A stretch of 24,869 nucleotides of DNA from an uncultured delta proteobacterium (GTDB taxonomy: Bacteria; Desulfobacterota; Syntrophobacteria; BM002). Shown here in pieces: positions 3,241-23,272 of the stretch; positions within the stretch are counted from its first letter, which is position 1, and each line of letters begins with the position of its first letter. Made by a program: the position numbers and the translations under genes. The stretch lies in the NCBI GenBank assembly GCA_963712115.1, contig CAVQGX010000041.1:1-24869 (forward strand), read 5' to 3'. The notes beneath the pieces were generated by a model. The model was given only the letters and a program-made list of their open reading frames with translations. It did no database searches and had not been told where the DNA came from.

Positions 3241-3244
3241 GGTG

Positions 3245-4878: not shown

Positions 4879-4938
4879 CTCTATGCTCCATGCCCTATGC
4901 TCTATGCTAGATAGCTTGGTCCAACCACCGACCATTTT
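4879..4938 (+). repeat. Family-A spacer S1 (CTATGCT-type heptamers plus partial terminal motif)
   Basis: CTATGCTCCATGCCCTATGCTCTATGCT, then TAGCTTGGTCCAACCACCGACCATTTT, nearly identical to 16146-16172. Confidence 0.75.
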
Positions 4939-4950
4939 ATAAATGCTACA

Positions 4951-4979
4951 TTGACAAGGTACTGATTAAACAATATAAA
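4951..4979 (+). promoter_or_regulatory. Sigma70-type promoter
   Basis: TTGACA-17 bp-TATAAA upstream of the CDS at 5056. Confidence 0.65.
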
Positions 4980-5055
4980 ACTCAGTTATTAAAAAAAACT
5001 CAGAAAGGTGAAGTTCGATTTGTAAACCAAAGCATAATTCACTTTTACGAAAAGA

Positions 5056-6105
5056 ATGGAGTTGAATAAAAAAAATATAAAGTTCACCTCGCACTGCCTA
5101 TTAATAATCGTAACGGCATATTGTTGCTTTGCCGCCAGCCTTGTAGAGGCTCAAAAGCCCTTACCTAAAGAATCTGGTTTTTCTGGATACATCGAATTGC
5201 TTGGAGCATACATAAGCACTAATTCGCAATTAAACACAGACAATAAAAACGACAGAACGGATTCTTTGGACAAGTCCGGCGAGCGTGTTTCTAAAGTCAG
5301 GCCACTTCCGCTGGGACTAATTGCTTATACCTTCACCGAATTACGTACTCAACTCTTTTTGGGTGTGCTGCCAGAAGCTGTGGTGCAAGGTCAGTTCCAA
5401 GTTGAAGCAGGAGTGCGGCACGATTTATCGAATGGCACCAGTTTGCGTGCTTCAGCCATTCCCATTACACCCTTTGAGGAGGAAACCTGGGAGGACCCAT
5501 TTGTTGTAGGTCAGGATCGCAAAAAGACTGATATCACATCCTATGGTTTTAAGCTGGCGGCTGAGAACATCCGGGCATCTGGCATAGGCTTGGAATACAG
5601 ATGGCTACAGCAAAAAATTGATAACGAAAAAAGCGGTACATTTTTAATATCACAGCCAGGTAGTCCCCTTACACTCGAGGACCTAGATGACCTGAAGCGA
5701 GATTCGAAATCTCACCGCTTATCAGCTGAATATTCATTTGAGTTGATGCCCCGAATGAGTTTAAAGCCAATTCTCAGGTACACCCGCGAAGATGCCGAAG
5801 GTGATGCAAACAGTTTTCACGCTTTGACCACGCAATTGTCTTTTTCATATTTCGGGGATCAATTTCAGGCATTCGTTAATGGCATTGCCAAAGGTGAATG
5901 GTATGATGATACTCATCCAGTATTTGATAAGACCCGTCGGGATTTCAATTTGGGCCTGTTCGCAATCCTTGGTTACAAAGAACCGCTTGGATTAAAAAAA
6001 TTTAGAATCGACTGGTTAAATGGTTTTTTTATGTCGAACTCAAATATCAACTTTTATGAGTCTACCAACTATATAACTGCCCTTGGCATTGCCTACAACT
6101 TTTAA
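5056..6105 (+). CDS. Outer-membrane beta-barrel protein, DUF2860-like
   Basis: Signal peptide, ESGFSG N-terminal motif, TWEDPF..G..R..TD, alternating beta-strands, C-terminal aromatic signal GIAYNF. Confidence 0.8.
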   Translation: MELNKKNIKFTSHCLLIIVTAYCCFAASLVEAQKPLPKESGFSGYIELLGAYISTNSQLNTDNKNDRTDSLDKSGERVSKVRPLPLGLIAYTFTELRTQLFLGVLPEAVVQGQFQVEAGVRHDLSNGTSLRASAIPITPFEEETWEDPFVVGQDRKKTDITSYGFKLAAENIRASGIGLEYRWLQQKIDNEKSGTFLISQPGSPLTLEDLDDLKRDSKSHRLSAEYSFELMPRMSLKPILRYTREDAEGDANSFHALTTQLSFSYFGDQFQAFVNGIAKGEWYDDTHPVFDKTRRDFNLGLFAILGYKEPLGLKKFRIDWLNGFFMSNSNINFYESTNYITALGIAYNF

Positions 6106-6175
6106 GCTGACGCTTGGCAATCTATAGATTTTTAAATCGAATGCATAGTGGCCATCTGCCTGAGTAGGCGCTTTC

Positions 6176-6470
6176 GGTCGGGCCAAATTTCCTTCTGTTT
6201 AGCCGGTTAGCCAGTTTTGCCTGTCTCCAATTCGCAAGCCGAAATTCGAAATTTCTTCCCCATGCTCCATGCCCTCACCTATTACAACAAATGACAGCGC
6301 AGCGTAGTGACCTAATGGACGCCGAAGGCACATGACGCGAAGCGCTAGCTGCCCCCTGCAAGCTGCCTGTTGCCTGCTGAACATCCCCGTCTAGCCCGAC
6401 CTCACGTCTCGCGCGTCTCGCTGGAGCCATCCGCTCACCGCTTACTGAATTGTTCGCTTGGCCCGACCAC
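6176..6470 (+). repeat. Family-A spacer S2, bounded by inverted ends (MITE-like)
   Basis: GGTCGGGCCAA (6176-6186) / TTGGCCCGACC (6458-6468). Full 29-bp motif at 6442-6470. Confidence 0.9.
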
Positions 6471-6494
6471 CGACCCGGACCGACCCGGAAAAAA

Positions 6495-6523
6495 TTGTGA
6501 TTTTGACAAGATTTTAGTAGAAT
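6495..6523 (+). promoter_or_regulatory. Putative sigma70 promoter
   Basis: TTGTGA-17 bp-TAGAAT upstream of the CDS at 6673. Confidence 0.4.
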
Positions 6524-6672
6524 AATGCCATTTGACTTGAGCTATCGATTATCCCAGCCGCTTTCGTCAGGACAGGGACGTTCAAAAGGACAGTTACGGG
6601 GGTCGGAAGTGGCAGTCAGCGACGACTGCTGCATAATTCCCAATAAGATTTGGCAAAAAAAGGGGGGGCGTT

Positions 6673-7578
6673 TTGGATAATGATGCCAAAACCAGGGAGG
6701 AGCTCATTGCGGAGATAAAAGATCTCCGAGCCCGCCTTGCGGAAACCGAAGAGGCTTTACTCGCTGCCAGTAAAAGCAGAAATAATCATGTGCGTAAACA
6801 TGCCGAGGACGAAATCCAGTGGGCCAAAGAAAGAAACCACGAGCGGGCGAGAGCCGACGAACTATTGCAATTTGAAAAAAGCGAGCACCGGCATTCCGAG
6901 AAAGAACTGGAGAAAACGCGTGAGCAGCTTCAGGATGTTTCCTTTAGACTTCTCTTGGCCGAGGAAACGGAGAGAAAACGAATCGCCCAGGAGATTCATG
7001 ATGGCATCGGGCAACATTGGTCCACGGTTAAACTTCGAATGGAAAGAATTCTAAGCCAGCTTGATAAAGAGATCGCCACGCCCTTGAGGGATATCCTTCC
7101 CATCATTCAGGTGGGCCTAGAAGAAACCCGTCGAATTCAAATGAATTTGCGGCCCGCCCTCCTGGACGATTTAGGGATATTGGCTACCATTAACTGGTTT
7201 TGCCGGGAATTTCAACAGGCCCACCCGGACATCCGCGTGGAAACGAAGATCGATGTCCAAGAGGATGATATTCCCAATCCCGTAAAGACCGTCATTTATC
7301 GGGTTTTGCAGGAAGCCCTTAACAATATTTCCAAACATAGCCAAACGACTCTTGTCAACCTCTCCTTACACAAAGAAGAGGGAACGATAGAATTCACTAT
7401 TCAAGACCATGGTCAGGGATTTGATATGAATGCGGTTATTTCTCTGAAGAGTTACGACAAAAGACTGGGGCTCTCCGGTATGAGAGAGAGAACTCATCTT
7501 TCAGGTGGATCCTTTTCGATTGAGTCCACAAAGGGGATAGGCACCACCATCTGGGCATCATGGCCTTTGCCTGTTTAG
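6673..7578 (+). CDS. Soluble NarX/UhpB-type histidine kinase (HisKA_3 + HATPase_c)
   Basis: ERKRIAQEIHDGIGQ H-box, LRPALLDDLG, YRVLQEALNNISKHS N-box, DHGQGF, LGLSGMRER. TTG start. Confidence 0.92.
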   Translation: MDNDAKTREELIAEIKDLRARLAETEEALLAASKSRNNHVRKHAEDEIQWAKERNHERARADELLQFEKSEHRHSEKELEKTREQLQDVSFRLLLAEETERKRIAQEIHDGIGQHWSTVKLRMERILSQLDKEIATPLRDILPIIQVGLEETRRIQMNLRPALLDDLGILATINWFCREFQQAHPDIRVETKIDVQEDDIPNPVKTVIYRVLQEALNNISKHSQTTLVNLSLHKEEGTIEFTIQDHGQGFDMNAVISLKSYDKRLGLSGMRERTHLSGGSFSIESTKGIGTTIWASWPLPV

Positions 7579-7833
7579 CCGGTCTTATCAGCTAGCAGCG
7601 GTCAGCTTGCAGCCCGCAGGTAGTTAATTAGGGAATTAGGAAATTAGGAAATTAGTCAAATAATTGATCGTTCACCGTTTACCGTTTACCATTTACCACA
7701 CCAACGACTTCAACGACTTTTACGCTTTTAACGAATTGACTAATTCTCTAATCAACTAATCAACAAAAAGCTATGCGTTCCGCTTACCGCTCACTGCTCA
7801 CCGTTTACTGAATTGTTCGCTTGGCCCGACCAC
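7571..7833 (+). repeat. Family-A spacer S3
   Basis: Starts CTGTTTAGCCGGT. Contains AATTAGGA, TTTACCG, CAACGACTT, CTAATCAA and GCTCACT tandem repeats. 29-bp motif at 7805-7833. Confidence 0.9.
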
Positions 7834-7945
7834 AGCCCGCACCAGCTCGCCACTTAGATACTGACGATAGATGTATTCCCAAAAGACTGAGTCACTGCCA
7901 GACCAAACAGATGGACTAAATTCCTTCGCTTCGGACTTGGCCTTA

Positions 7946-8668
7946 TTAAGTGCTACCAAATACCTTTTTTAAAATATCCGTAGTCCTTGCTACAGGGTCA
8001 GTTCTGATCTTCTTCTCCTCTTGGCCCACCATGTAAAAGAGTCCATCCAAGGACTCTTCTGTCACGTAATGATCGAGGTCAAGAGATTCGGCCTTTGCAA
8101 AAGGAATCGTCGTGTACTTGTCCATCATGTTCTTATAAGCGCGGGTAACCCCTACTTCATTCATGCTCGATGAGACACTGGGCTCGAAGGCGGCATAGAG
8201 CTTGTCGTGCATTTTCTCTCTGAAGTAGTCGGTTGCAGCAGTATCATTACCTTTGAGGATCTTTTGAGCATCTTCAAAGGTCATCTCCTTGAGGGCTTCG
8301 ACAAAATAGGATTTTGCTTGGGGAGCGGCATTTTCTGCAGCCCGGTTCATACTACGAACAAAATCATCAACTTGTTGTTGAAAACCAAATTTCTTGAGGG
8401 TGTCTGCAACTGTGCGTATTTTTTCTGGCACAAGAATCTTGATAGCCTCATTGCCAAAGTAGCCATTTAGAGTAGCCACGGAGCTTACCGCATTATCAGT
8501 ACCCTGAGAAAGGGCCTCCTTTAGACCGGCGATAATGGTGTTCTCATCAAGGCTTTCCTGGGAGGCCGGGGTAATTATTTGCTTAGCTTTATCCCAAAAC
8601 CCCGCCTCACCGGAAGAAGCCAGCACCACAAGAGCCAAAAATCCCATTATAATCAATATGTTTCTCAT
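7946..8668 (-). CDS. DUF4197 family secreted protein
   Basis: GLKEALSQG, GYFGNEAIKILVP, SMNRAAENA, AATDYFR, LDGLFYMVGQEEKKIRTDP..RTTDILKKVFG. Confidence 0.9.
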   Translation of the reverse strand: MRNILIIMGFLALVVLASSGEAGFWDKAKQIITPASQESLDENTIIAGLKEALSQGTDNAVSSVATLNGYFGNEAIKILVPEKIRTVADTLKKFGFQQQVDDFVRSMNRAAENAAPQAKSYFVEALKEMTFEDAQKILKGNDTAATDYFREKMHDKLYAAFEPSVSSSMNEVGVTRAYKNMMDKYTTIPFAKAESLDLDHYVTEESLDGLFYMVGQEEKKIRTDPVARTTDILKKVFGST

Positions 8669-8906
8669 ATTTTCAACTCTTTCCTTGTAATCTCTAAACT
8701 ACTAACTAACAACGCGAGGTAATTTCGCTGTCTGTTCACACTCTCTTCACCTGCTTGCTTGTGAGGTTACCTGCGTGTGCAACTCGTAAGTTGAGATAAA
8801 TTTGTCTCTGATAAATGACTCTATTTAGGCTGTGTTAACTGTGTTTTTTGTTGCATCACCTATAATTCAACATGTTTTCTACTCTAGCAAAGCGACCACT
8901 GTACTG

Positions 8907-9368
8907 CTACGCTGCTTCTACTGACAACTCCGAAGTGCAGTGTCCACAACGTGCGGCTTTGATGGGTATTGTCGATAGACAGTGAGGACACTCTTTGGTT
9001 GTCGGTTCCGCTGGCGGAGCCTCTTCTTGGCGCTTCATTTTGTTGAGGCCACGGATTAGCAGAAAAACTGAAAAGGCCACAATGATAAAGCTAATGATGG
9101 TATTTGCGAACATACCGTAGTTGATTGTGACCGCACCGGCCTTCTGCGCATCAACAAGGGCAGCATAGGGTCCAGCGGTGGCGCCTTGTTTGAGAACGAT
9201 AAACAGGTTGCTGAAATCAACATTGCCCAAGAGCAAGCCAATTGGCGGCATGATGATATCGGCGACGAGTGATTTGACAATTGTACCAAAGGCCGCACCA
9301 ATGATGATACCTACAGCCATGTCAACTACGTTACCTCTCATGGCAAACTCTTTGAATTCTTTTAACAT
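8907..9368 (-). CDS. mscL: Large-conductance mechanosensitive channel with C-terminal CxxC...CxxC extension
   Basis: [44 protein letters not shown]; [16 protein letters not shown]. Confidence 0.96.
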
Positions 9369-9461
9369 CTTTTACTCCTTATGCTCTTACAGGTATTTGC
9401 GATCCTTCTAGAATCCTTTTTCCTGCTTTTCGTGCTTTTATTTGTGATACGCGATGAAAGG

Positions 9462-10157
9462 CTACTCTTTAAGCTTTATCCGCAAATGCCCTTCGCGAAT
9501 CTTAATATCCTCAACCCCTTTGGAAAATTGATCCCAGAATCCCCCCTCGCTGCCGAATTCTTCCACCAGGTTCTTATTCTTAATATCGCCCCACCAGGCA
9601 CTGGGCAGGGGGACTCCACCCAAGCTCACCCCGCGTATGGCCACAATTGGCCGATCCTCTTTGTAGCTAAGTGTGACGCCAAAAAACAGCCGCAGTGTTT
9701 TCCCGCCGAGGATAGGAAAATCTTCATCCATAGGTACTAACAGTTTCACACTTATCAAATCGTCGGCAAGATCAATCGCCACACGCTTTGCTGTCTCTGG
9801 ATCTTTGGCAATGAGTGCATTTAATTCCTTTTCCGAAAGGCTGATTTCTCTTTTGGCGTCGTCCTCACTATAACGTTCAGGCTCGAGCGGCCTACTTGGA
9901 TGGTAGGGCTTCGCTTTCCTGACGGGAGGCTTTTCCTTGACCGCCGATACCTCTAACTTGGCAAGCTTTGAATCTAGCACCTGCTGTTCCTTAACACTCA
10001 GGCGCGTCGGCTCAAACTGGGAAGCATAAATGTTTTTCTTGACCCACCAAGCTGAGAGCAGAGCGCCAACAATGATGGCGATGAAAGCGATCAATAGGAC
10101 GTGGTGCCATCCAAAACGACTCTTTTTCGGAAGGGTTTTAAAGTCTGTTTCAGTCAT
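9462..10157 (-). CDS. Membrane-anchored hypothetical protein
   Basis: 231-aa ORF with one N-terminal TM helix, in an apparent operon between the AsmA gene and mscL. Conserved-looking SEKELNALIA and GVSLGGVPLPSAWWG. Confidence 0.75.
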   Translation of the reverse strand: MTETDFKTLPKKSRFGWHHVLLIAFIAIIVGALLSAWWVKKNIYASQFEPTRLSVKEQQVLDSKLAKLEVSAVKEKPPVRKAKPYHPSRPLEPERYSEDDAKREISLSEKELNALIAKDPETAKRVAIDLADDLISVKLLVPMDEDFPILGGKTLRLFFGVTLSYKEDRPIVAIRGVSLGGVPLPSAWWGDIKNKNLVEEFGSEGGFWDQFSKGVEDIKIREGHLRIKLKE

Positions 10158-10179
10158 AGCTCTAAATTTACAATGTCCT

Positions 10180-12186: not shown

Positions 12187-12261
12187 AATCCACCTAACAA
12201 CCTTTGCCTGAACTTCCCACCATGTTCCTTGCACAGGTGGGTCAGTCTGAGGATAAATTTT

Positions 12262-12741: not shown

Positions 12742-12847
12742 GGGCCGTGGGGTAGGTGTTCTCTAAACGAGTTCAGGTGGTACGTATCTAAGTATCGTCT
12801 GGCTTTTTGTCAATTGGAAGTGACTGAAGAGAGAAAGCGGGAAGAGG

Positions 12848-13062
12848 GGATTTTGAATTGCGGATGTGGGAAGGCATAGAGTAAAGAATTTTGAATTCGC
12901 CCTATGCTCCATGCCCTCACCTATTACAACAAATGACAGCGTAGCGTAGTGACCTAATGACGGCCAAGCCAAGTGACATAAATAGCCTTGCTCCTTGAGC
13001 CCTGCGCCTTATGCCTTTCTTACCGCTCACCGCTTACTGAATTGTTCGCTTGTTCCGACCAC
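12848..13062 (+). repeat. Family-A spacer S4
   Basis: 67-bp core module at 12924-12990. Terminal motif at 13034-13062 with two substitutions. Confidence 0.9.
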
Positions 13063-13097
13063 GACCCCACGACGGCCCCACGGCCCTGTTTCAGATC

Positions 13098-13432
13098 TCA
13101 CACGAGGTCAGAAAGCCCAAGCCGCTCGAGTGTTTCAGCCTTTTGCAAGCCTGACTCAGAGTCCCAGCCTCGGAGTTCATAAAATTCCTTGCGCATCTCT
13201 TCGAATACATCCCTATCCAAAGTTTGACCCTTTCGACTAATTACTTCTTCGCCCGGCCCGGGGACGATCACATCGGGGTTCATGAACACGGTTTCAACGG
13301 GATCAACAAAATTGAATTCTTCCGGAACATCATCTACTTTGGGTCGCCGTCCTTCCCGTAAAAGAACGCAACGTTGAAGATTGAATATTCTTTCGCCATA
13401 CTGATGAAGCCCGGCTTCATCAGTTTCGATGC
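13098..13432 (-). pseudogene. Duplicated 3' fragment (~110 codons) of the AOR gene
   Basis: Protein identical to the AOR C-terminus except D>E and A>P. No native start; the GTG at 13442 lies inside the repeat. Confidence 0.9.
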
Positions 13433-13474
13433 GTTCGCTCACCGCTTACTGAATTGTTCGCTTGGTCCGACCAC
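13429..13474 (+). repeat. Family-A spacer S5 (minimal)
   Basis: ATGCGTTCGCTCACCGC followed by the motif at 13446-13474. Confidence 0.9.
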
Positions 13475-13509
13475 GACCCCACGACGGCCCCACGGCCCTG
13501 TTTCAGATC

Positions 13510-15408
13510 TCACACGAGGTCAGAAAGCCCAAGCCGCTCGAGTGTTTCAGCCTTTTGCAAGCCTGACTCAGAGTCCCAGCCTCGTAGTTCATAAAATTCC
13601 TTGCGCATCTCTTCGAATACATCCCTATCCAAAGTTTGACCCTTTCGACTAATTACTTCTTCGCCCGGCCCGGGTACGATCACATCGGCGTTCATGAACA
13701 CGGTTTCAACGGGATCAACAAAATTGAATTCTTCCGGAACATCATCTACTTTGGGTCGCCGTCCTTCCCGTAAAAGAACGCAACGTTGAAGATTGAATAT
13801 TCTTTCGCCATACTGATGAAGCCCTGCTTCATCAGTATCGATGCCGGTTACGGCGGAAAAAATTCTACTCTCGAGGGTAGGATCTCCAACGTGATCGGGG
13901 GTATTCCAGGAAACCATCAAAGGCCAGACGGAATCACACAACAGCAGGCTGTCTTTGACGTAGGTTCGATCGATGATTTTAGCTGCCGCCATGGCCTTTC
14001 CTTCATGGGTATTCAGATCCCACGCCTTCTCGCTTCCCCAGAATTTGGTGGCCGCGGCCCGAAATACCTCGGATGTTACCGGTGAAGATTTGGGATCGGC
14101 TTGATTCATGACCCATAAACCGGTTAACCAACTTATTTCGTGAAGCATGGCAATTGGCTGTCTAGGTTCCAAGGCGTACAACAGACCGTTCATAAGATAT
14201 TCCCGTGCAGAGTAACTGGCACCATCTCCGACGCCGGATACCTCGTTTGAAAAATACGCCCTGGCTTTTTCACCGAGCTTCTCGCCGACTCGAAGGAGGC
14301 CTTCGGCCAGAATATCGCCAAATCCTTCTCGACGAGCAATCATATTGGCGAGATTCTCAAAAAACTCACGGGTGCCCAGCTTTGAGATATCAAGCCCGGT
14401 CTGCTTATCGGTAAGGTAGCCGGACCTGTAGCAAGTGTCCAACCATTGAACGACATTGTACATTTCCATTGTGCAGATCGACAAATCATTACAGATCCCT
14501 GTGGCATCAACAGCGGTCTCCATGGACTCTCCCTGTCTTCCCAAAACCCATGGAAAATAGACGAACATGGATTGACATTTTCTCACAACGTTCTTCCCGG
14601 ACGCCGTACGAAAAGAGTTTCTATACTTACAATCGAGACCGCATTGGAAACAAGACGACTGTCCGGTTCGACGAACCTGTTCCTCAGGAAAAGGGGCTAG
14701 GAGTGGGTCACGCTTATTTAAATGGATTGTCAATTTATTGAGTTCTTTTAATTCCTCCGCTTTTGCTACCAATGGACTTCCCGTTCCCAGTACCGCTACG
14801 GCCTTGAGGTTTTTAGATCCCAGCACCGCACCGAACCCACCAGTGGCGCTCCCTTCATTGTCTGTCATCAGATTGGCACTCCGGCACATGTTTTCACCGG
14901 CCACACCGGTGGTTACGAATCGCACATTTTTTCCATGCGACTTTTTTAAGATGTCCCGAACCTCATAAACACCCTTTCCCCAAAGCGAAGAACCATCTAA
15001 AATTTGGGCTTCCCCGTCGTGGATCCAGAGATAGACCGGCTTTGCCGATCGTCCTGAGATGACCACACCGTCGTAGCCTGCTTTTTTTAAGTAGGGACCG
15101 AAAAATCCGCCAAGGTTCCCATAACAGAACCCTTCCGGCATCAACATGGGGGACTTGCCAACGACTTCAAACCGGGAAGCACCTTGGGCACCGGTAGCCC
15201 CCAGAGGACCAGTCATGAAAATCAGGTGATTCTCAGGATCAAAAGCTCCTACATTGGGCCCTACTTCCTCCCAGTAAATCCGAGTGGCAATCCCTCGCCC
15301 GCCCAGGAAACGGTCTGCATAGTCCATGGTCTTCAGTTCGCTGATTCGCAGTTCAGAGAGATCTATCTTGAGTATCTTGCCACACCACCCATATATGCTG
15401 GTCGTCAT
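13510..15408 (-). CDS. Tungsten-dependent aldehyde:ferredoxin oxidoreductase family protein
   Basis: YGWCGKILKIDLS, FLGGRG, GGFFGPYLKKAGYDGVVISG, GFGAVLGSKNLKAV, Fe-S CxxCxxxC (CFQCGLDC) plus DSLLLC, REGFGDILAEG, FYELRGWD..TLERLGL. GGAGG RBS. Confidence 0.93.
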   Translation of the reverse strand: MTTSIYGWCGKILKIDLSELRISELKTMDYADRFLGGRGIATRIYWEEVGPNVGAFDPENHLIFMTGPLGATGAQGASRFEVVGKSPMLMPEGFCYGNLGGFFGPYLKKAGYDGVVISGRSAKPVYLWIHDGEAQILDGSSLWGKGVYEVRDILKKSHGKNVRFVTTGVAGENMCRSANLMTDNEGSATGGFGAVLGSKNLKAVAVLGTGSPLVAKAEELKELNKLTIHLNKRDPLLAPFPEEQVRRTGQSSCFQCGLDCKYRNSFRTASGKNVVRKCQSMFVYFPWVLGRQGESMETAVDATGICNDLSICTMEMYNVVQWLDTCYRSGYLTDKQTGLDISKLGTREFFENLANMIARREGFGDILAEGLLRVGEKLGEKARAYFSNEVSGVGDGASYSAREYLMNGLLYALEPRQPIAMLHEISWLTGLWVMNQADPKSSPVTSEVFRAAATKFWGSEKAWDLNTHEGKAMAAAKIIDRTYVKDSLLLCDSVWPLMVSWNTPDHVGDPTLESRIFSAVTGIDTDEAGLHQYGERIFNLQRCVLLREGRRPKVDDVPEEFNFVDPVETVFMNADVIVPGPGEEVISRKGQTLDRDVFEEMRKEFYELRGWDSESGLQKAETLERLGLSDLV

Positions 15409-15816
15409 TTGTTCCTCCTCTGGGGTTAGGTTTTTACATGTTGCAATGAGAAAAATTAGGGCTTCGTGGACTGGCCGCTCTAGTCAAAGATTATACACCA
15501 GACTCTGGCACGGATTGTCTCAAAACAAGGCCAGACATGATCGTGTCCTGATTCGTGGGGTTTAATTACTTTTTCTGCTGAAGCCGTATCCTTTTCCGCC
15601 GTTGATATCTTTACTTACGGAGAAACACGGAATCAGCAATTGTAGAGTTAGTCTAATGGGCCGCAAGGGAAGTTTCAAGATTGGTTTCATAAGAGGGAAT
15701 TTACATTTATTCCCTTTGGGTTCAGAATCACCCGGCAAGACGGATACGGCAAGTCTATGGACGTCCCCCGATGTTACTTATTTACAAATGGACGTGCCTA
15801 TTTTCCCCTCATAGCC

Positions 15817-16104
15817 TTATTCACCACAGCATTTTTTGTACTTCTTCCCGCTACCACATGGGCAGGGCTCATTGCGTCCAACTTTCTTTTCGGCTATCTT
15901 CGTCTGCGGTGTATCTAATAATATTTCTAAATCGGTGATGTCCTCTGGTTTATCTGGCTCCAATCCAATTGTATAGTTCCAACCCTTTTCTTCAAATATC
16001 GATGCTACTTCTTTCAATCTTTCTTCGGTTTGTACATTAACAACAGCGGGTCTCTTTGCAGTACCTAATTTTGTCTTCTTTTTGCCATCATAAATTTTTT
16101 CCAT
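15817..16104 (-). CDS. SEC-C metal-binding motif protein (PBPRA1643-like)
   Basis: [18 protein letters not shown]...EDITDL and C-terminal [18 protein letters not shown]. Alternative TTG start at 16119. Confidence 0.88.
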
Positions 16105-16145
16105 CTTTTCACCATTCAATAAATATCATAGGATTCATCTAATAT

Positions 16146-16276
16146 TAGCCTGGTCCGACCACCGACCATTTTCGCTTTGCGCCATGCGCTCTTCCTCTTA
16201 CGACAAATGACAGCGCAGCGTAGTGACCTAATGACGGCGAAGCCAAGTGACATAAATCGCCTTGAGCCCTGCGCCT
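16146..16276 (+). repeat. Family-A spacer S6 (partial motif plus core module; left part of the spacer split by pagL)
   Basis: TAGCCTGGTCCGACCAC at 16146-16162; core module at 16198-16264; ends CCCTGCGCCT. Confidence 0.85.
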
Positions 16277-16340
16277 CCTATCTTATCTTGTTCCAACCTC
16301 TCGCCAAATCACTATACAAGTCGAATTAGGCCGAAACTGA

Positions 16341-16877
16341 TTAGAATAAATAACTTAGCTCGAGCACGTGAAGCTCCAAGCCTGGATTCCGATTATAGAT
16401 GCTCGCGTTGGACATGTGCTGGAACCGATAGCCCACACCCAGATTAGCACCGAGTTTGAAACTTATGCCCACATGACTAATAAATTGAATGGGCCCCCCA
16501 AAGTTTTCCCGGCCGAACTGATGCTCACTCAGAAGTGCAGCACTGATCCCACCGCTCAGCAAAATTAGACCGTGAACCATACTCAGTGCAATGCTCGGAC
16601 CGACCGAGCCAATGAAACCTGTTTCCCCTCCACCCCTGAGAGCACCGGCTGAGAGGTGAATCCTCGTACTCACAAACCAACCTGGAGTTAGTCCCCAACT
16701 CCATGGGAGCCCATAGGTCGCAAACACCTCATATTGCTCAAAGTCTTCATTGCTGTCTGTTGCAGAGAGACCCGCTCGAAAACCAACCGCGATCCAGTCG
16801 GTTTCCTCGGCGCGGCCCGCTTGGGGCGAAAAGATGCTCAGCAACAGTAGTATCAACCAGACAGTGTTAAATCGCAT
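16341..16877 (-). CDS. pagL: Lipid A 3-O-deacylase / acyloxyacyl hydrolase (PagL family)
   Basis: Signal peptide, beta-barrel pattern, catalytic YRFQHMSNA...NPGLE motif, C-terminal F. Confidence 0.88.
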   Translation of the reverse strand: MRFNTVWLILLLLSIFSPQAGRAEETDWIAVGFRAGLSATDSNEDFEQYEVFATYGLPWSWGLTPGWFVSTRIHLSAGALRGGGETGFIGSVGPSIALSMVHGLILLSGGISAALLSEHQFGRENFGGPIQFISHVGISFKLGANLGVGYRFQHMSNASIYNRNPGLELHVLELSYLF

Positions 16878-16882
16878 GGTGT

Positions 16883-17007
16883 CCCTGCGCCTTGCGCCCT
16901 AAGCCCTGTGCCTTTTTTACCGCTCGCTGCCCTAAGCCCTGTGCCTTTTTTACCGCTCACTGCTTACCGGTTTACTGCTTACTAAATTGTTCGCTTGGCC
17001 CGACCAC
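16883..17007 (+). repeat. Family-A spacer S7, with an internal 30-bp direct duplication
   Basis: Starts CCCTGCGCCT. GCCCTAAGCCCTGTGCCTTTTTTACCGCTC occurs at 16896-16925 and 16929-16958. Motif at 16979-17007. Confidence 0.9.
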
Positions 17008-17024
17008 GGTTCAAACGGCTCACA

Positions 17025-17327
17025 TTACTCTTCTGGGCAGCATTCTTCTAAGTGTTTTTCCAATCCTTGTGAATAATCTTCAAGCTTGGCTTTGGCCTCC
17101 TCGAGTTCTTCGATAATTTTGGAGAGTTCAAATTCTCTGGCCTCAACTTTGACCAACATCATCCCAAATGATTCGGCTAATTCTGCCAGCAGACTTGGAT
17201 ATCTGCCTTTCTTGGCAAGCTCAAATAATTTATCAGCATCTGATTTCTCATATCGACCAGCCGCAATCTTCTTACATGCAGAATTAAGCATCTCAAATAA
17301 ATCAAGATAATAACGTTCAAGATCCAT
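17025..17327 (-). CDS. Small HAMP-like/coiled-coil hypothetical protein
   Basis: KKIAAGRY...LAELAESFGMMLVKVEARE..L resembles a HAMP linker followed by a coiled coil. AAGGG RBS. Confidence 0.7.
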   Translation of the reverse strand: MDLERYYLDLFEMLNSACKKIAAGRYEKSDADKLFELAKKGRYPSLLAELAESFGMMLVKVEAREFELSKIIEELEEAKAKLEDYSQGLEKHLEECCPEE

Positions 17328-17408
17328 TTTGTTTTCCCTTCATATCAATGAGTCTGAGTAGAGAACGGCAAAAAAGAATCTGACCTCTTTTTGCCCCATT
17401 CCCTTTGT

Positions 17409-17880
17409 CTGTTTAGCCGGTTAACCAGTTGAGCCGGTTTAGCCTGTCTGCCACTCGCATCAAAAGAAGTCCGCGTTCCGACTTCCGCGTTTAAATGTCT
17501 CGCTAGTCTCGCAGGGCACTCCATGCCTATGCCCCATGCTAAATGACTTGGCCAGTAGTCAGTAGGCAGTAGCCAGTAGTTGAAAGGAACTCAATTTTGA
17601 TTGCTTTTCTCCTGAATTCTGGATTCTGACTCCTCTCTCCTTACGCTATGCGCTCTGCGCTCTGCGCTTTGCCTTCCCCAATCCGCAATCCGAAATCCGC
17701 AATCTACAATCTAAAATCTACAATCTGATCTCTGCCCTCTGACCTCTGACCTCTTTCTTCTTTCCCCGTCTCGCTAGTCTCGCCGGCTCACGCAGTGAGC
17801 TCCCTTGCGCCCTATGCGTTTCTTCCCGCTCACTCAGCTTACCGTTACCGCTTACTGAATTGATGGCTTGGCCCGACCAC
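17409..17880 (+). repeat. Family-A spacer S8 (longest mosaic)
   Basis: Starts CTGTTTAGCCGGT. Contains TTCCGAC, GTCTCGC, CTATGCC, CAGTAGN, ATTCTGN, TGCGCTC, AATCCGC and TCTGACC repeats. Motif at 17852-17880. Confidence 0.9.
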
Positions 17881-17909
17881 GGATCGACCTGCTCCGTTGA
17901 CAAATCAGA

Positions 17910-18842
17910 CTAAGAGTGAGTTGGTGAGACCCAGGACTCCTGCTGGAGAGGAGTGTGGCTTTTGACAAGCAGAATCAGCCGTTCTGCAATATCGTGCACA
18001 ATATCATCAGGCACACCATCAGGCGTCTTCGATTGCAGACGTAGATCGAGCACATCATTGACATAGTCTACAACCACGAAAAAACCATCAGGAGTTAACG
18101 AAATTTCAGTAGAGAATAAATCAAGCTTACAAAGCCTTGCAATAGAAACGACTGTTTCGTGCAAGCTTCCTAGACGGTAGCGGCTTTCTTCGGCGAAAGT
18201 GACTGGGGCATAGAAGCGTTTACGACTATCCCACCAGCAAGGATACACCTTTCCCCCGCAGTAGATAACGCGAAACCATGCCGGACGAAAGTCAAGCTGA
18301 GCTGAAACTACATGAGCTTGCAACAGGTATCTATCGCTGGGGTGATCCCGTCGGGCCGAGAGCACTTCACTGAGCGAGGTGGCTTTGTTGACCACTCCTT
18401 CGCCACCACCGCCGTGTGCGGGTTTGATAGTAAATCTATCACCCAGTGGGCTAAGATCAAGGGGTCCCAGCACTGGCTGTTGCTCATACGATGGGAGAAC
18501 GATGGTATATGGAGTGTGAAGGCAGAATCTCGTTAGGAGGTGATGCATTGTGGCTTTGTCCCAGGTACGAGTTGCGTGCTCATAAGGGTTGATCCGATAC
18601 ACAGCGTTATCGCGGGCCCACTGTACGATAGGCAGAACACGTGGATCGGCATCCGAAGCTCGGTCAAAGAATGCCCGGAAGCTAAGCCGATTATCGTTAA
18701 GAGCCCGCAAGTGTTGCATGAGGTTCTCAGGCGTAATCTGCATGAGTGATATACCGTGCGACCGACAGGCGCTGTCGAGCAGCGAAACAAAATCAGCGTC
18801 GTATTCCCAGTTCCATAAAAGGCAGAGATCGTAACCACTCAT
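17910..18842 (-). CDS. ATP-grasp-fold hypothetical protein
   Basis: RINP...WDKATMH, FTIKPAHGGGGEGV, YLLQAHV, LFSTEI, VVVDYVND. GAGGAG RBS. Confidence 0.7.
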   Translation of the reverse strand: MSGYDLCLLWNWEYDADFVSLLDSACRSHGISLMQITPENLMQHLRALNDNRLSFRAFFDRASDADPRVLPIVQWARDNAVYRINPYEHATRTWDKATMHHLLTRFCLHTPYTIVLPSYEQQPVLGPLDLSPLGDRFTIKPAHGGGGEGVVNKATSLSEVLSARRDHPSDRYLLQAHVVSAQLDFRPAWFRVIYCGGKVYPCWWDSRKRFYAPVTFAEESRYRLGSLHETVVSIARLCKLDLFSTEISLTPDGFFVVVDYVNDVLDLRLQSKTPDGVPDDIVHDIAERLILLVKSHTPLQQESWVSPTHS

Positions 18843-19339
18843 GGCTTTGATCTCCTCTTTCTCTGCCCTCTAACAGATTGCGGGGATATCGATCTCTCAC
18901 GCATGACGAGCTCTCTCATTTGGTGCCATCAACCCGCTCCAAAGATAGGAAACAGCCGAGCTTCACGGCCAGTGACCAACCAGGAACCACCCGGACTGTA
19001 CACGTTAGCACAAGATACTAAAGTCAGTCAAAATGGGTTTCATGTTGTATGTATTTCATCTTGTATGTTGATTTGTCAAAGCACTTGCCTATGACTTTAA
19101 GTGAGCCTAATTGTAATGCGGTGTACAAGCCGCTACCTCATCCCTAAATCTACAGTCTCAGTACCAGGGAACCTACCACAAGATGGACTGGCTGGTCAAA
19201 AGGTAGGCGAGTTAAGATTAAAGTAATGTTCAGTCAGGCCAAAAAATGGCGTTTAATTTGCACAAGATGCAAACAAAGACTTGCCCCAGTAACTACAGGG
19301 GCAGCTGGTGTTTAACCTTCTGCGAGGCTGTGAATCGTC

Positions 19340-20473
19340 ATGATAAACATACTTTTGTGGCTGGGAGCGGTACTCTGGATTCTCCTTTTTATTCAGTTAA
19401 TCGTAAATCGTGCCCTGGCACGAGATCTGTCCAGGACCAAACTCGAAGCGGTCAAGAACCCGCCATTTGTCTCCATCGTAGTTCCAGCACGCAACGAAGA
19501 AAGATCCATTCGAGAAGCGGTTGCCTCATTTTGCACACAAGACTACCCGCTCTTTGAGGTCCTGGTAGTGGACGACCGTTCCACGGACGCCACCCCCCAG
19601 ATTCTTGCAGAGCTCCGGACGCGCTTTTCAAACCTGAAAGTGATTGACGGACGAGATCCGCCCGATGGCTGGCTGGGAAAGCCTAATGCCCTCGAGATTG
19701 GCAGGAAAGAGGCGAAAGGTCAATGGCTACTCTTTGTGGATGCTGACGTGGTCTATGCCCCTGATCTTCTCGGCCGCGCTATTGCCCACGTCGTGCGCGA
19801 GGAGGCGGACATGCTCTTTCTTGCTCCCAACTTTACCACAAAAGGAGTCATGGAAGCGGTTCTCATGTCGACCATTTATCTTGTCGGTGCCGCAGCTTTT
19901 CCCGCTTATCTGGCAACTCATTCAAAGAGTAAACGTTTTGCAGGCGGTGGTGGGGTTTTCAATTTGGTGCGCAGGGATGCTTTGACTGCTTGCGGTGCCT
20001 TCGAGAGCATCAAAGACGCTGTGGTCGACGATGTAGCCTTGGGATACAAAGTGAAGGCTGCAGGCTGCAGGCTTGCGGGGGCCATGGCTGGATCACTTAT
20101 ACGTATCCGAATGTACCACAGTGCCTCAGAAACTGTTGAAGGCTTCACTAAGAACATTTATCCACTGGCGCGACAACTTCCCTGGCTTTTACCAATCCCC
20201 TTCGTGGGCGGTCTACTTCTTACTCTACTGCCATACTACAGCTTCTTTGATGGTTTGCTCGCTGGATTCATAAGTGTTCCGGCTGCGACATCGCTCATTT
20301 TCATGCACATGGTTCTTGGCTGCATCTCGCTTTTCTTTCAACAGCCCTGGTACATAGCTTTTTTGAACCCCTTGCGAGAGGTTGGCTGGTGGTGGATTAT
20401 GCTGCGGTCTCTAGTTGTTTATCATCGGAAGGGAATCGTCTGGCGAGGCAGGAGCTATAGGAACAAAAACTGA
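19340..20473 (+). CDS. Membrane GT2 glycosyltransferase (HpnB/CrtQ-like)
   Basis: VSIVVPARNEE, VVDDRSTDAT, GWLGKPNAL, LFVDADV, VVDDVALG, RMY, C-terminal WRGRSY; N- and C-terminal TM helices. Confidence 0.9.
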   Translation: MINILLWLGAVLWILLFIQLIVNRALARDLSRTKLEAVKNPPFVSIVVPARNEERSIREAVASFCTQDYPLFEVLVVDDRSTDATPQILAELRTRFSNLKVIDGRDPPDGWLGKPNALEIGRKEAKGQWLLFVDADVVYAPDLLGRAIAHVVREEADMLFLAPNFTTKGVMEAVLMSTIYLVGAAAFPAYLATHSKSKRFAGGGGVFNLVRRDALTACGAFESIKDAVVDDVALGYKVKAAGCRLAGAMAGSLIRIRMYHSASETVEGFTKNIYPLARQLPWLLPIPFVGGLLLTLLPYYSFFDGLLAGFISVPAATSLIFMHMVLGCISLFFQQPWYIAFLNPLREVGWWWIMLRSLVVYHRKGIVWRGRSYRNKN

Positions 20474-20492
20474 ACTGCATTAGCAAAAATAC

Positions 20493-20727
20493 AGTTATTA
20501 GTTATAAGTCATACGTTATTGGTCATACTTAATTCCACAATCCGCAATCTGCAATCTAAAATCCACAATTGCTCCATGCCCCTACCTCTTACAACAAATG
20601 ACAGCTTAGCGTAGTGACCTAATGACGGCGAAGCCAAGTGACATAAATAGCCTTGAGCCTTGCGCCCTAAGCCCTGTGCCTTTTTTACCGCTCACCGCTT
20701 ACTGAATTGTTCGCTTGGTCCCACCCC
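20493..20727 (+). repeat. Family-A spacer S9
   Basis: AGTTATT and AATCCGC heptamers, core module at 20589-20655, motif at 20699-20727. Confidence 0.9.
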
Positions 20728-21102
20728 ATTTCCAGTGGAAGCTTGACTCGCCAAACGTTCTTCGATGTCTTTTTTCCTCCCGATTCTGTAAGCGTCAACA
20801 ACCCCAATGATCCAGCAGACAATTATCAATAACAAGACGAGATTGAATGCGAAGCTCTCGGAAGTGGTGGATGCCTGGGTGGCTGCCTTCGAAATCGTAT
20901 TCATATCGATTGCACCACCTTCCGACTGAATCTTTTCGACGATGGCAAGGGCTTGTTGCGATGCTTTCACTACAATTACCGAGAGGCCCGCTAAGACTGC
21001 AAGCATGAAAGCAATACCCCGTTTATAATGTTTTAGAATGACCTGACCCAGGCCTGGAAATACAAGACCTGACAAAAGCGCTCCTTTTAATGAGTTATTC
21101 AT
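20692..21102 (-). CDS. Small membrane protein with LS..PGLGQ motif (DUF5683/TM2-like)
   Basis: ALLSGLVFPGLGQVILKHYKRG...WIIGVVDAYRIG. Start at MNNS after GGAAGG. The C-terminus reads into the repeat. Confidence 0.8.
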   Translation of the reverse strand: MNNSLKGALLSGLVFPGLGQVILKHYKRGIAFMLAVLAGLSVIVVKASQQALAIVEKIQSEGGAIDMNTISKAATQASTTSESFAFNLVLLLIIVCWIIGVVDAYRIGRKKDIEERLASQASTGNGVGPSEQFSKR

Positions 21103-21175
21103 TGTGCCCTTCCGGTCTGGTGAAATGATTTGTTCTGCGTCAATTTCCTGTCGTCTCAAATTGCTATGGTTCAGC

Positions 21176-21625
21176 CTATGGTAACTGCCGATTCTCTGAC
21201 ACTAAAAAAAAGGACTTCACCCTCGCAACTATTTGGTTTTCGGTTAATCTATCGGTGGTTTCGACTGCTGCAATCCTGTCTTTCTGGCCTTTTATTTTCT
21301 CAATTTCTTTTGCCAGTTCAAGTTTCGCCTCACCGGGGCCAAAGATGAAGATATTGTCGGCTTTGCCGGCCTCTTTAATTACCATCTGATAGAAGTTATG
21401 AAACTGGTGTTTGCGGCGTTCGTCCGCTTTTTGCTCTTTTGATACTGACTGAGCCACGGAAGTGCCAGCAGCCTTCCATCCGCCTGATGGACGAAAGTGG
21501 CTTTCGGCGTGTGACTCGATACGCTCAACCTTTGTTTGGCCGCCTTCTATTGAAACCAAAATTGCCTCCTTGTGATCGATCCAGATGCCAATCTTTTTCT
21601 TCATCATGTGCCCTAATTTTGCCAT
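21176..21625 (-). CDS. eRF1-domain-like / host-attachment (baeRF-like) protein
   Basis: IGIWIDHKEAILV...FHNFYQMVI...IFIFGPGEAKLEL...DRLTENQIVARV. AGGAGG RBS. Confidence 0.75.
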   Translation of the reverse strand: MAKLGHMMKKKIGIWIDHKEAILVSIEGGQTKVERIESHAESHFRPSGGWKAAGTSVAQSVSKEQKADERRKHQFHNFYQMVIKEAGKADNIFIFGPGEAKLELAKEIEKIKGQKDRIAAVETTDRLTENQIVARVKSFFLVSENRQLP

Positions 21626-21912
21626 ATTGCCTCCTTTATCCTGTCAATGGCTACTCAAATGTGATTTCCTTTAAGCAGCCGAATCATATTTCCAACCGGA
21701 AAAGCAACCTGATGGGGTGAATTTGCTGATTGTATTTTACCGCCTCTGATATACGCCACTTGCCGATGCATTCACTTTTCATGTCTGCTCATTTGTCGTG
21801 CTGTTATAACGATGTGGATCAGCCCAGGGCAAACCAGCGAAGCCTTTTACCCGTCGGTGCGGCATCCAGGGATTATACACCCGATTATACACCCATGGTG
21901 TAGATTTCGATA

Positions 21913-21963
21913 ACATCCCTTAGTTCACAGTATTCCCTCCTGAAATCTCAACACAAAATGTAG
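21913..21963 (-). repeat. Repeat family B, degenerate copy
   Basis: ACATCCCTTAGTTCAC...AATCTCAACACAAAATGTAG. The terminator hairpin is absent. Confidence 0.5.
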
Positions 21964-21971
21964 AGCACGTC

Positions 21972-22470
21972 GTGGTCGGGCCCATTTGCGTAAAACTAAA
22001 AAGTAAAAGAACGTCCTCCTTCATATATTTTTTTACCCATTTCTTACCCGGTAACAAATGGGTAAATTTACCCATTTTATACACGGTAAGTTTTGGGTAA
22101 ATTTTGTCTTGGAAATGTTCTGGTCAACGAGGAACTGATCAAGGAAGGTCTGGGGTGGGTCTACGTTCGCTATTGCACACTGCCTCTCTGCAGCGACAAG
22201 TGGAATGGTCTCGAACTTGAGGCGAGATCCGGGAAGCGAGGCCTCTGGAGAGACACAGGTGGGATTCCCCCCTGGGAATACAGAAGACAAAAGAAGCAGT
22301 GATTCGCGGCTGTCTATTTTTTTCATTCTCTTTCGCCTTTCGTCTCGCTCGACCTCACGTCTCGCTCGTCTCGCTGGCTCACGTAGTGAGCTCCCTTGCG
22401 CCTTGAGCCCTCTGCCTTGTGCCTTTCTTACTGCTCACCGCTTACTGAATTGTTCGCTCGGCCCGACCCC
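21972..22470 (+). repeat. Family-A unit S10: inverted end, nuclease remnant, mosaic and terminal motif
   Basis: GTGGTCGGGCCCA at 21972-21984; mosaic at ~22340-22441; motif at 22442-22470. Confidence 0.8.
22093..22302 (+). pseudogene. C-terminal remnant of a thermonuclease (SNase-like)
   Basis: VNEELIKEGLGWVYVRY...LELEARSGKRGLW...PPWEYRR is the typical thermonuclease C-terminus. The N-terminal catalytic half is missing and there is an in-frame stop just upstream. Confidence 0.8.
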
Positions 22471-22570
22471 ATTTCGAACATTTGACATGTACAACTTAAT
22501 AATACTTGTCTTTTCTTAATGTAGTAGGATAATAGCCTGGAGTCTCCAGATAGATTATGGGGGAAGTGAG

Positions 22571-22996
22571 ATGATGAGCTCGTCGAAAACCTTAAAAGTT
22601 CTTGCTTTAAGTTGTTTGCTGTTGTTGGTGGGATGCTCGCAGAAGCGCCCTGTCCTCTATCCCAATTACCATTTGCAACAGGTGGGAGATGAGACGGCTC
22701 AAACTGAAATCGACGAGTGTATAAGCTTTGCCAAAGAGCATGGTGCCTCTTCAAGTTCCAGCGGCAAGGTAGCAAAAAAGACTGCGGGAGGTGGGGCGGT
22801 TGGCGCTGCAGGCGGAGCTGCTACCGGGGCCGTGTTAGGTAGTGTCGGGCGCGGTGCAGCGGCAGGTGCTGCCGGTGGTGCCGCTGTAGGGTGTCTCCAG
22901 GGACTTTTCGGTTCACGTGAGCCAGACCCTGTATTTCGGCAATTTGTTGACAGATGTCTCCGCGAAAAGGGATACGAGCCCATTGGCTGGAAATGA
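22571..22996 (+). CDS. Glycine-zipper lipoprotein
   Basis: Lipobox LVGC, DIDEC-like EIDEC, GGGAVGAAGGAATGAVLG..GAAAGAAGG, FVDRCLREKGYEPIGW. Confidence 0.85.
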   Translation: MMSSSKTLKVLALSCLLLLVGCSQKRPVLYPNYHLQQVGDETAQTEIDECISFAKEHGASSSSSGKVAKKTAGGGAVGAAGGAATGAVLGSVGRGAAAGAAGGAAVGCLQGLFGSREPDPVFRQFVDRCLREKGYEPIGWK

Positions 22997-23064
22997 TTAC
23001 ACCTCATCCTGTTAGCTTCTTGATGCACAATCCCCAGCAACTGCATTCTTTTCCTGGCTACGTT

Positions 23065-23272
23065 GTGGTCGGGCCAAATTATTGTTCTGTTTAGCCGGTG
23101 AGCCAGTTTGGTCGGTTTAGCCCATGGCCATCAGCACAAAAGAATTCCACGTTACCCGTTCCGACTTCCGCGTTTAAATCCTCGTCTCGCCCGACCTCTC
23201 GTCTCGCCCGTCTCGCTGGAGCCTTCCGCCTACCGTTTACTGCTTACTGAATTGTTTGCTTGGCCCGACCGC
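23065..23272 (+). repeat. Family-A spacer S11, bounded by inverted ends (MITE-like)
   Basis: GTGGTCGGGCCAA (23065-23077) / TTGGCCCGACCGC (23260-23272), 12 of 13 bases complementary. Confidence 0.9.

Follow-up and report, generated by a model that had tools for sequence, protein, structure and literature searches.

A conserved 29-nt motif as the probable right terminus of modular, heptamer-rich intergenic repeats in an uncultured delta proteobacterium

Short interspersed repeats of several kinds are known between bacterial genes. The bacterial interspersed mosaic elements (BIMEs) of enterobacteria are built from REP units, the STRR of cyanobacteria are heptamer tandem repeats, and the BOX elements of Streptococcus pneumoniae have a modular A-B(n)-C build. 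TAACTGA heptamer direct repeats have been described in Beggiatoaceae, cyanobacteria, and Bacteroidetes, and those of Microcystis possibly share one orientation along the chromosome, according to MacGregor (2015; PMC4679880). We analysed a stretch of 24,869 nucleotides from an uncultured delta proteobacterium (assembly GCA_963712115.1, contig CAVQGX010000041.1; here C41, or the window, since the stretch is the entire contig), in which a 29-nt motif, TTACTGAATTGTTCGCTTGGCCCGACCAC, separates unrelated groups of genes. The first-pass annotation of this DNA had taken the motif for the fixed junction of a gene-capture platform. We hold with moderate confidence that the 29-mer is instead the right terminus of genus-specific, non-coding, modular intergenic repeats, consisting largely of heptamers and resembling BIMEs, BOX elements, and miniature inverted-repeat transposable elements (MITEs), with no capture machine involved. 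The repeat family is a new variant of such mosaics, lying in a flexible, recombination-prone region; no paper on heptamer or mosaic repeats in Desulfobacterales was found in the limited literature collection searched.

The genome under study (G000; 4.9 Mb, 70 contigs, 94% complete, 5.99% contamination) was compared with 17 congeners (G002, G005, G007, G009-G014, G016, and G017 among them) and 23 genomes from outside the genus. It is 1.3-1.7 Mb larger than its closed relatives; G002, G011, and G013 were the closed congener genomes compared. Nine copies of the 29-mer, with 0-3 substitutions, were found in the window, all on the + strand and at the same nine starts that had been reported before, while none of 100 shuffles yielded a match. 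Genome-wide, 12 copies were found at ≤4 or at ≤6 substitutions; C41 carries nine of them, C44 two, and C53 one. All copies thus lie on contigs totalling 62.7 kb of 4.9 Mb, and the clustering at one locus is real. A 13th copy was probably cut off at the start of C62, which opens inside the module preceding the 29-mer. C53 and C44 overlap at 98.5% identity, and each of them also overlaps the last part of the 172-kb contig C32 (96-99.5%). All the copies are therefore assigned to a single chromosomal region, of which the assembly contains more than one strain variant.

Upstream of the 29-mer, conservation extends for about 20 nt more (CCGCTCACCGC...), and the parts further upstream are mosaics of common pieces. 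On the other side, an abrupt stop of similarity at GACCAC had been described. Similarity does not always end there; it runs past GACCAC in two sub-variants, one reading ...CCCCATTTYC (copies 20699, 22442, and C44:930) and the other ...CCACCGACCATTTT (copies 4912 and 16146). The latter two are the partial copies already noted near these positions, and both were recovered (Table 1). At the first of them, homology of the DUF2860 block with G002 and G016 begins at 4938/4943.

The spacers of the window are in a 7-nt register and consist of joined heptamer runs and a few longer modules in a constant order. A left module (GTGGTCGGGCCAAATTAT..CTGTTTAGCCGGTTAGCCAG) comes first; it is followed by heptamers of the AATCCGC and CCATGCC types, a core of ~60 nt (..ACAACAAATGACAGCGNAGCGTAGTGACCTAATGACGGCGAAGCC..), heptamers of the GCTGCC, CCTTGCG, and CGTCTCG types, TTACCGC/TCACCGC heptamers, and finally the 29-mer. 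The register is unbroken from the g-module (TTTACCG CTCACCG) through to the terminus. Each spacer retains its own subset of modules in the common order, and a complete unit opens with the inverted 13-mer GTGGTCGGGCCAA, continues with AATTAT..CTGTTTAGCCGG and closes with the 29-mer. The left module opens with the reverse complement of the 13 nt that close the 29-mer, and the units at 23065-23272 and 6176-6470 (E4 and E1) are therefore bounded by inverted termini. Terminal inverted repeats of the MITE kind were seen in these two and in three complete units of 87-345 bp on contig C94 of G012; and, as in REP/BIME mosaics, the same 13-18-nt terminus precedes at least three different internal sequences. 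When the 13-mer was searched at ≤1 mismatch, 24 matches appeared in the genome, compared to 1-8 for six shuffled-motif controls, and 13 of the 24 fell on C41, C44, C53, or C62.

Table 1. Positions of the repeat ends, elements, and associated features in the window.
Feature	Position	Strand	Support
29-mer right end (R-end), exact consensus (0 mismatches), closes element E1	6442..6470	+	motif search
29-mer R-end, exact consensus, closes element E2	7805..7833	+	motif search
29-mer R-end, 2 mismatches	13034..13062	+	motif search
29-mer R-end, 1 mismatch, product of the 412-bp tandem duplication	13446..13474	+	motif search, repeat family D2
29-mer R-end, 1 mismatch, 17 nt ahead of the stop of the 100-aa gene	16979..17007	+	motif search
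29-mer R-end, 2 mismatches, closes element E3	17852..17880	+	motif search
29-mer R-end, 3 mismatches, sub-variant ...CCCCATTTCC	20699..20727	+	motif search
29-mer R-end, 2 mismatches, upstream of glycine-zipper gene; position kept in G009, G012, and metagenome contig L143	22442..22470	+	
29-mer R-end, 2 mismatches, closes element E4	23244..23272	+	motif search
Short R-end variant (..GCTTGGTCCAACCACCGACCATTTT) ending a short heptamer array	4912..4938	+	repeat family D11
Short R-end variant, 93% identity to 4912-4938	16146..16172	+	repeat family D11
Element E1: inverted terminus GGTCGGGCCAA, CTGTTTAGCCGG module, heptamers, core, heptamers, 29-mer	6176..6470	+	D5, D6, D8
Element E2: degenerate left module (CTGTTTAGCCGG), heptamers, 29-mer	7559..7833	+	D15
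Element E3: longest mosaic array; left module, at least 5 heptamer runs, 29-mer	17394..17880	+	D7, D8, D12
Element E4: complete unit, 13-bp inverted termini GTGGTCGGGCCAA ... TTGGCCCGACCGC	23065..23272	+	
Inverted terminus, left-end-like GTGGTCGGGCCCA; brackets a 97-aa open reading frame (ORF) with the R-end at 22470	21972..21984	+	D19
Core module 25-mer with GCGNAGC and GGCGAAGCC mini-hairpins; window copies also at 6293, 16209, 20600	12935..12959	+	
412-bp tandem duplication: R-end and 3' end of the aldehyde:ferredoxin oxidoreductase (AFOR) gene	13024..13847	+	D2: 300 nt, 99%
IS110/IS1111-family insertion sequence, inside a different repeat family, unlinked to the 29-mer	2009..3329	-	

The modules other than the terminus are spread over the whole genome. 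The 25-mer of the core occurs in 102 copies over 39 contigs, and CGTCTCGCCCGACCTC in 69 copies. TRF detected 4,676 tandem arrays, 2,115 of which have a period of 7 (4.3 per 10 kb), with dozens of distinct heptamer units; the 12 period-7 arrays of the window represent an average density. Within the core (spans 6293-6345, 12935-12990, 16209-16264, and 20600-20655 in the window), the mini-hairpin GCGNAGC is kept in 94 of the 102 copies, N being C in 35, A in 28, T in 20, and G in 11. The next hairpin reads GGCGAAGCC in 41 copies and the stem-swapped GCCGAAGGC in 26. GNA-loop mini-hairpins are stable in DNA. Variation restricted to the loop, together with swapped stems, would be the pattern expected for such hairpins, and suggests that the structure may be read as single-stranded DNA or RNA.

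It may be noted that at C56:7625-8362 (locus L135), at a contig end, an IS200/IS605-type tnpA gene (149 aa) directly adjoins two long, TGAC-periodic repeats of the core type in inverted arrangement. This long version is also present on about nine other contigs, and the C56 locus may have supplied or mobilised the core module. We considered the Y1 gene of C56 as a REP-associated tyrosine transposase (RAYT) and rejected it, as it scored 151 bits with the IS200-type model and 28 bits with REP_Tyr_transpos (cut-off 80).

The arrays are polar to the replication skew, inherited at fixed positions, and fast-changing in their interiors, and neighbouring arrays are the most alike. Concerning polarity, 73 of the 102 core copies have the orientation opposite to the sign of the GC skew around them; with |skew| > 0.02, the figure is 47 of 62. 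The window has a skew of -0.061 and carries its elements on the + strand; on C44 and C53 the skew is positive and the elements are on the - strand. The strand of the R-end fits the skew in the window and at 8 of 10 further loci, drawn from G000, three congeners, and two metagenome contigs; at the remaining two the skew is near zero. As judged from GC skew alone, array orientation appears to track the direction of replication. The uniform orientation of the 29-mer is accounted for by this polarity of the whole repeat system and is not specific to the window array. When the core was followed along the replichores of closed relatives, no clear strand switch was observed, on few copies (9 in G002 and 17 in G011).

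Inheritance was examined in the relatives. At ≤3 mismatches, the 29-mer occurred in 3 of the 17 congeners (1-3 copies each) and in none of the 23 genomes outside the genus; exact copies were present on two metagenome contigs. A wider distribution was found for the terminal ..CTTGGYCCGACCAC and for the 18-nt left end; the latter, at ≤1 mismatch, gave 18 matches in 10 of 18 genus genomes, and its reversed control gave none. Only exact matches of the 13-mer were used in congeners, since one mismatch brought the search to the level of the controls there; exact copies numbered 12 in G012, seven in G011, four in G013, one in G007, and none in G002. G012 has same-strand clusters of its own, seven copies on the + strand over 10.5 kb of C122 and five on the - strand of C103. 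The inner sequence of these clusters is different (..TTAACTTGGCCCGACCAC) while the terminal ..CTTGGCCCGACCAC is unchanged. In the closed G011, the seven copies are scattered.

In G000, G005, G012, and G014, the AFOR stop has an R-end at a distance of 15-35 nt; G002, G011, and G017 carry a left-module type at that position, and G010 none. Similarly, an R-end is found upstream of the glycine-zipper gene in G000, G009, G012, and the metagenome contig L143. In L143, the 29-mer is exact and the adjoining 229 nt are just 80% identical. The terminus is thus kept constant while its surroundings drift. As it stands at the same genes in several species, at least those copies were inherited and not captured.

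Likeness between neighbours was evident from the core, the nearest relative of a copy being on its own contig for 34 of 100 copies (3.7 expected), and local core variants were visible on C14, C18, C30, C38, and C42. The local cluster of the 29-mer is explained by this resemblance between neighbouring arrays, of which it is the strongest case. As regards the interiors, 10 of the 13 orthologous gaps of a collinear control region on C30 hold spacers in both G000 and G002, with unrelated contents, and the other three are insertions of 185-374 nt present in G000 only. Between the haplotypes C44 and C53, a core/heptamer segment is replaced between identical flanks, indicating exchange of modules on the time-scale of strains. 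Fast turnover of the spacers is by itself enough to make homology seem to stop at gene ends.

BIMEs too are intergenic and combine a short conserved unit in either orientation (here GTGGTCGGGCCAA, with a REP-like GTGG head) with other motifs in a set order, at high copy number and with candidate protein-binding sites. The unit described here is not itself a palindrome, however; its interior is made of tandem heptamer runs, no RAYT was found in G000, and the terminus variant is confined to one region. Conserved ends with short terminal inverted repeats, a variable number of internal units, and a non-coding length of 90-500 bp between genes recall BOX elements and MITEs. Unlike these, the present arrays follow the GC skew in their orientation, often lack a terminus at one end, and keep their positions across species; no cognate transposase was found for them, and no shared target-site duplication was seen in the flanks viewed. 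Abundant intergenic tandem heptamers with indels in 7-nt steps are shared with the TAACTGA and STRR repeats. Here, in a lineage of Desulfobacterales, dozens of different heptamers are joined to a core with hairpins and to conserved termini, and they are not positioned at ribosome-binding sites. A separate classical MITE of ~186 bp, with CTAGCCCGGATGTTTCATGAAT-type inverted ends, was also observed (18799-18983 of locus L105, which is C30:100001-120000 of G000, and many sites in G002, G011, and G013). It is present in dozens of copies per genome across the genus, with a clean empty site in G002.

The comparison with integrons could be made within the same genome. An integron attC array likewise alternates a repeat of uniform orientation with unrelated gene blocks whose order varies among relatives. 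G000 was tested with the IntI model TIGR02249 and by folding against shuffles, and a canonical chromosomal integron was found on C27. Its IntI (487 bits, C27:2356-3300, in locus L139, C27:856-4800) is preceded by at least three attC hairpins, with repeats of ~117 nt at C27:1-118, 490-606, and 1637-1750 between which lie small ORFs of ~0.5 kb; the contig begins within the array. The attC at C27:1637-1750 is a long hairpin with ATAAC...GTTAT ends (-26.8 kcal/mol, z = -4.63, none of 200 shuffles as good). Stretches of 129 nt ending at eight of the nine 29-mer copies folded no better than their shuffles (z from -0.41 to +2.27); of the arrays folded, eight gave +0.03 to +2.27 and one gave -0.41. 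The earlier statement that these sites are not attC was therefore borne out. The gene blocks also differ from integron cassettes, which are mostly single, promoterless ORFs in one orientation: they hold 1-5 genes on both strands and reach 5 kb, and the spacer modules occur genome-wide. An attC cassette array was rejected on these grounds, namely no hairpin, no adjacent IntI, and multi-gene blocks on both strands.

No IntI was found on C41, C44, or C53, the C27 match being the sole one to TIGR02249, and these three contigs carried no recombinase genes beyond inserted insertion sequence (IS) elements. The sole recombinase gene of the window is an IS110-family transposase at 2224-3240, whose element has three more copies (C42, C36, and C48). 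The ends of the IS4-like, IS630-like, and IS110 elements did not match the 13-mer, such as an autonomous partner of a MITE would. There are four Y1 transposase genes in G000, none close to the 29-mer locus. The G012 genes that are bracketed by a left and a right end are not transposases; the search for an autonomous element covered G000 and parts of G012.

The genes of the window are ordinary chromosomal genes. They encode a DUF2860 protein, a HisKA_3 kinase, a DUF4197 protein, MscL, AsmA, a DUF2780 protein, AFOR, a SEC-C-motif protein, PagL, a GT2 glycosyltransferase, a glycine-zipper lipoprotein, and an adenylate/guanylate cyclase, besides a few ORFs without a family match. Blocks of 1-5 unrelated genes in either orientation do follow the copies, as had been stated. 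As for base composition, which had been said to differ between the blocks, the GC content of the genes is 0.386-0.545, mostly inside the genome's 5-95% range of 0.427-0.540 for 1-kb windows. In the three closed genomes, the window genes match one by one, at sites separated by hundreds of kilobases. The G011 matches, for instance, are at 1.31 Mb (AsmA), 2.45 Mb (AFOR), 3.28 Mb (DUF4197), and 3.48 Mb (DUF2860). For about half of the window genes, these genomes gave no nucleotide match. Draft congeners carry the genes on common contigs in other orders. G016 has cyclase, DUF2860, and the 100-aa gene, in that order; in G012 the cyclase adjoins GT2, and elsewhere glycine-zipper, 100-aa, and AFOR stand in a row. 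G005 shares the window's AsmA-AFOR neighbourhood. In G009, only 8 nt separate the glycine-zipper gene from the 100-aa gene, while in G000 a left end follows the former and a right end precedes the latter.

Three control regions of 20 kb were compared with the same closed genomes. C30:100-120 kb was collinear with all three, C31:100-120 kb was conserved in blocks of 5-12 kb, and C20:100-120 kb was mostly absent. The repeat-dense C38:1-20 kb, C14:30-50 kb, and C44 were all mosaic or absent. The window thus belongs to the flexible part of the genome, and scrambling is not particular to the 29-mer locus. It had been suggested to test whether cargo order varies with breakpoints at GACCAC. Order does vary among congeners, where two of the controls are syntenic, but the borders of homology are at gene ends, 10-130 nt from the R-end, and lie at gene ends likewise at array-free junctions (DUF4197|MscL|AsmA). 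GACCAC is hence not a fixed recombination junction. Both copies of the 412-bp tandem duplication match AFOR 3' ends of relatives. The pagL gene with short flanks (16267-16892) interrupts what would otherwise be one continuous array; the two array halves have the 10-nt CCCTGCGCCT in common and, when joined, resemble the array at 20640-20693. The mscL gene occurs twice at 95% nucleotide identity (8908-9379 in the window and C38:31271-31742) with unrelated flanks, the second being either a single-gene duplicate or the contribution of another strain to the bin. No other part of C41 except the IS is duplicated elsewhere in the assembly.

On the reading we favour, that of a mosaic repeat terminus, the 12 (probably 13) copies within ~60-100 kb would have arisen by local spread or gene conversion among neighbouring direct arrays, and not by site-specific gene capture. 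With long, similar direct repeats between nearly every gene, the region would be prone to RecA-type or slippage rearrangement, and this would explain the tandem duplication, the existence of strain variants, and the scrambling of gene order. The direct arrays may shuffle genes by such general recombination, as suggested by the tandem duplication, pagL between its array halves, the mscL duplicate, and the G009 versus G000 junctions. That the terminal 13-29 nt are so strictly conserved suggests a candidate bound protein, transposase-like or architectural. Several observations weigh against this reading. A left terminus is recognisable for just 3-4 of the nine window copies, and the flanks of the copies viewed in G000 and G012 show no consistent target-site duplication (GGATCC flanks one G012 unit on either side, which may be an extension of the inverted repeat). 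A cognate transposase was not found, the IS ends on C53 and the IS110 ends being unlike the 13-mer, and searching relatives for the 13-mer with one mismatch yields no more than background. Neighbouring copies have a common history, so that the orientation counts are not independent. The scattering of window genes in closed relatives is stronger than in two of the three controls; the locus is unusual in this respect, and a dedicated mechanism thereby stays conceivable. Lastly, the assembly is 94% complete and 6% contaminated, with strain variants in the very region of the 29-mer copies.

A capture platform proper, in which a recombinase or transposase encoded elsewhere reads the GTGGTCGG end and captures genes, was not supported, and we regard it as very improbable. 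The clustered copies of single orientation, the 13-14 terminal nt conserved across species beside a differing inner sequence, and the variable cargo order would suit it. However, the junction of terminus and gene is inherited beside AFOR and glycine-zipper genes, the block structure is not constant, and orientation is explained by a replication polarity common to unrelated modules, which are themselves found genome-wide. No dedicated recombinase was encountered either, since those on C41, C44, and C53 are inserted IS elements with ends unlike the motif, and the integrase on C27 has its own attC family. The interpretation in the first-pass annotation was supported in part: confinement of the motif to one region, the single orientation, the variable gene order, and the difference from attC sites were borne out. 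An integron-like outcome without an integrase is a less remote idea, although still unlikely: homologous recombination between arrays of the same orientation would circle genes out, the circles would re-enter other arrays, and single genes would be shuffled, duplicated, or lost. Gene blocks in other orders in congeners, with arrays at the junctions examined, agree with this, as do the pagL array, the 8-nt gap of G009, the duplication that includes an R-end, the second mscL on C38, the module swap between identical flanks, and the mosaic state of other repeat-dense regions. Yet breaks occur at array-free junctions as well, the collinear C30 control has arrays in most gaps with its gene order kept, and fast spacer turnover alone mimics homology ending at genes. 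Nor was a circle or deletion junction shown: the sequencing runs contained at most 48% of the sampled words, the Logan contigs of the four runs compared are short and lie within genes, and their joints have 20-42-nt sides inside repeats, indistinguishable from other repeat copies. A related suggestion, which we offer only tentatively and think improbable to a like degree, is that the polar arrays act as portable homology for looping out, duplicating, and re-inserting single genes, as an integrase-free analogue of an integron, with the conserved 13-29-nt terminus as docking site of a polarity-setting protein.

Selection on the 29-mer as a cis-acting signal, such as a binding site of a regulator or of a nucleoid protein, or a boundary element ahead of promoters, with the cluster as a co-regulated neighbourhood, is doubtful, and more so than recombination between arrays. 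The exact 29-mer of another species beside a gene region of 80% identity speaks for a signal. So does TTGAC[AT], which follows 6 of the 12 R-ends within 45 nt (2.2% of random 45-mers) and lies 15-45 nt past those at 6470, 17880, 20727, 22470, and 23272 and past C44:930, whichever strand the following gene is on. A terminator-like score was obtained for the short variant TGGTCCGACCACCGACCA-TTTT. But the window copies adjoin gene 3' ends in six of nine cases and 5' ends in two, the neighbouring genes have no common function, and no convincing -10 box was found after the TTGAC[AT] or TTGACA of the R-ends. An outward-promoter role was rejected after a promoter and terminator scan in which promoters were not enriched (21 sites, 21.9 expected). 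Least probable of all, and highly so, is an artefact of assembly or binning, whether contigs of a co-assembled related strain with the motif genome-wide or chimeric joins at repeats. It would fit the contamination, the duplication of the C32 end by C53 (98-99.5%) and of C53 by C44, and the fact that C44, C53, and C62 begin inside arrays. Against it, C41 has no duplicate except for the IS and mscL, C53 and C44 tie the locus to the end of C32, G012 independently shows same-strand clusters, and junctions such as AsmA-array-AFOR are common to G005.

A documented repeat architecture thus takes the place of a new gene-capture machine, and the alternation of a repeat with unrelated genes is an insufficient basis for calling a cassette array. 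In this uncultured sulfate-reducer lineage of marine sediment, intergenic DNA is dominated by heptamer mosaics with inverted conserved termini, mini-hairpin cores, replication-linked polarity, and very fast turnover. Such an architecture explains the poor assembly of these genomes, and also why homology between species ends at gene borders and why order is scrambled in flexible regions. It offers a tractable case of how short polar repeats shape the plasticity of bacterial genomes.

Rfam (gathering thresholds) and tRNA scans of the window gave no matches. A second repeat family, a GC hairpin followed by TTACATCCCTTAAT, was seen at 1970-2032, 4110-4172, and 21905-21929, and one copy of it is split by the IS110/IS1111 element at ~2009-3329. 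At 23340-23410, a Shine-Dalgarno sequence and an ATG open a frame of 23 codons that enters the 3' end of the opposite-strand cyclase gene; it may be the remnant of a gene truncated at a rearrangement border.

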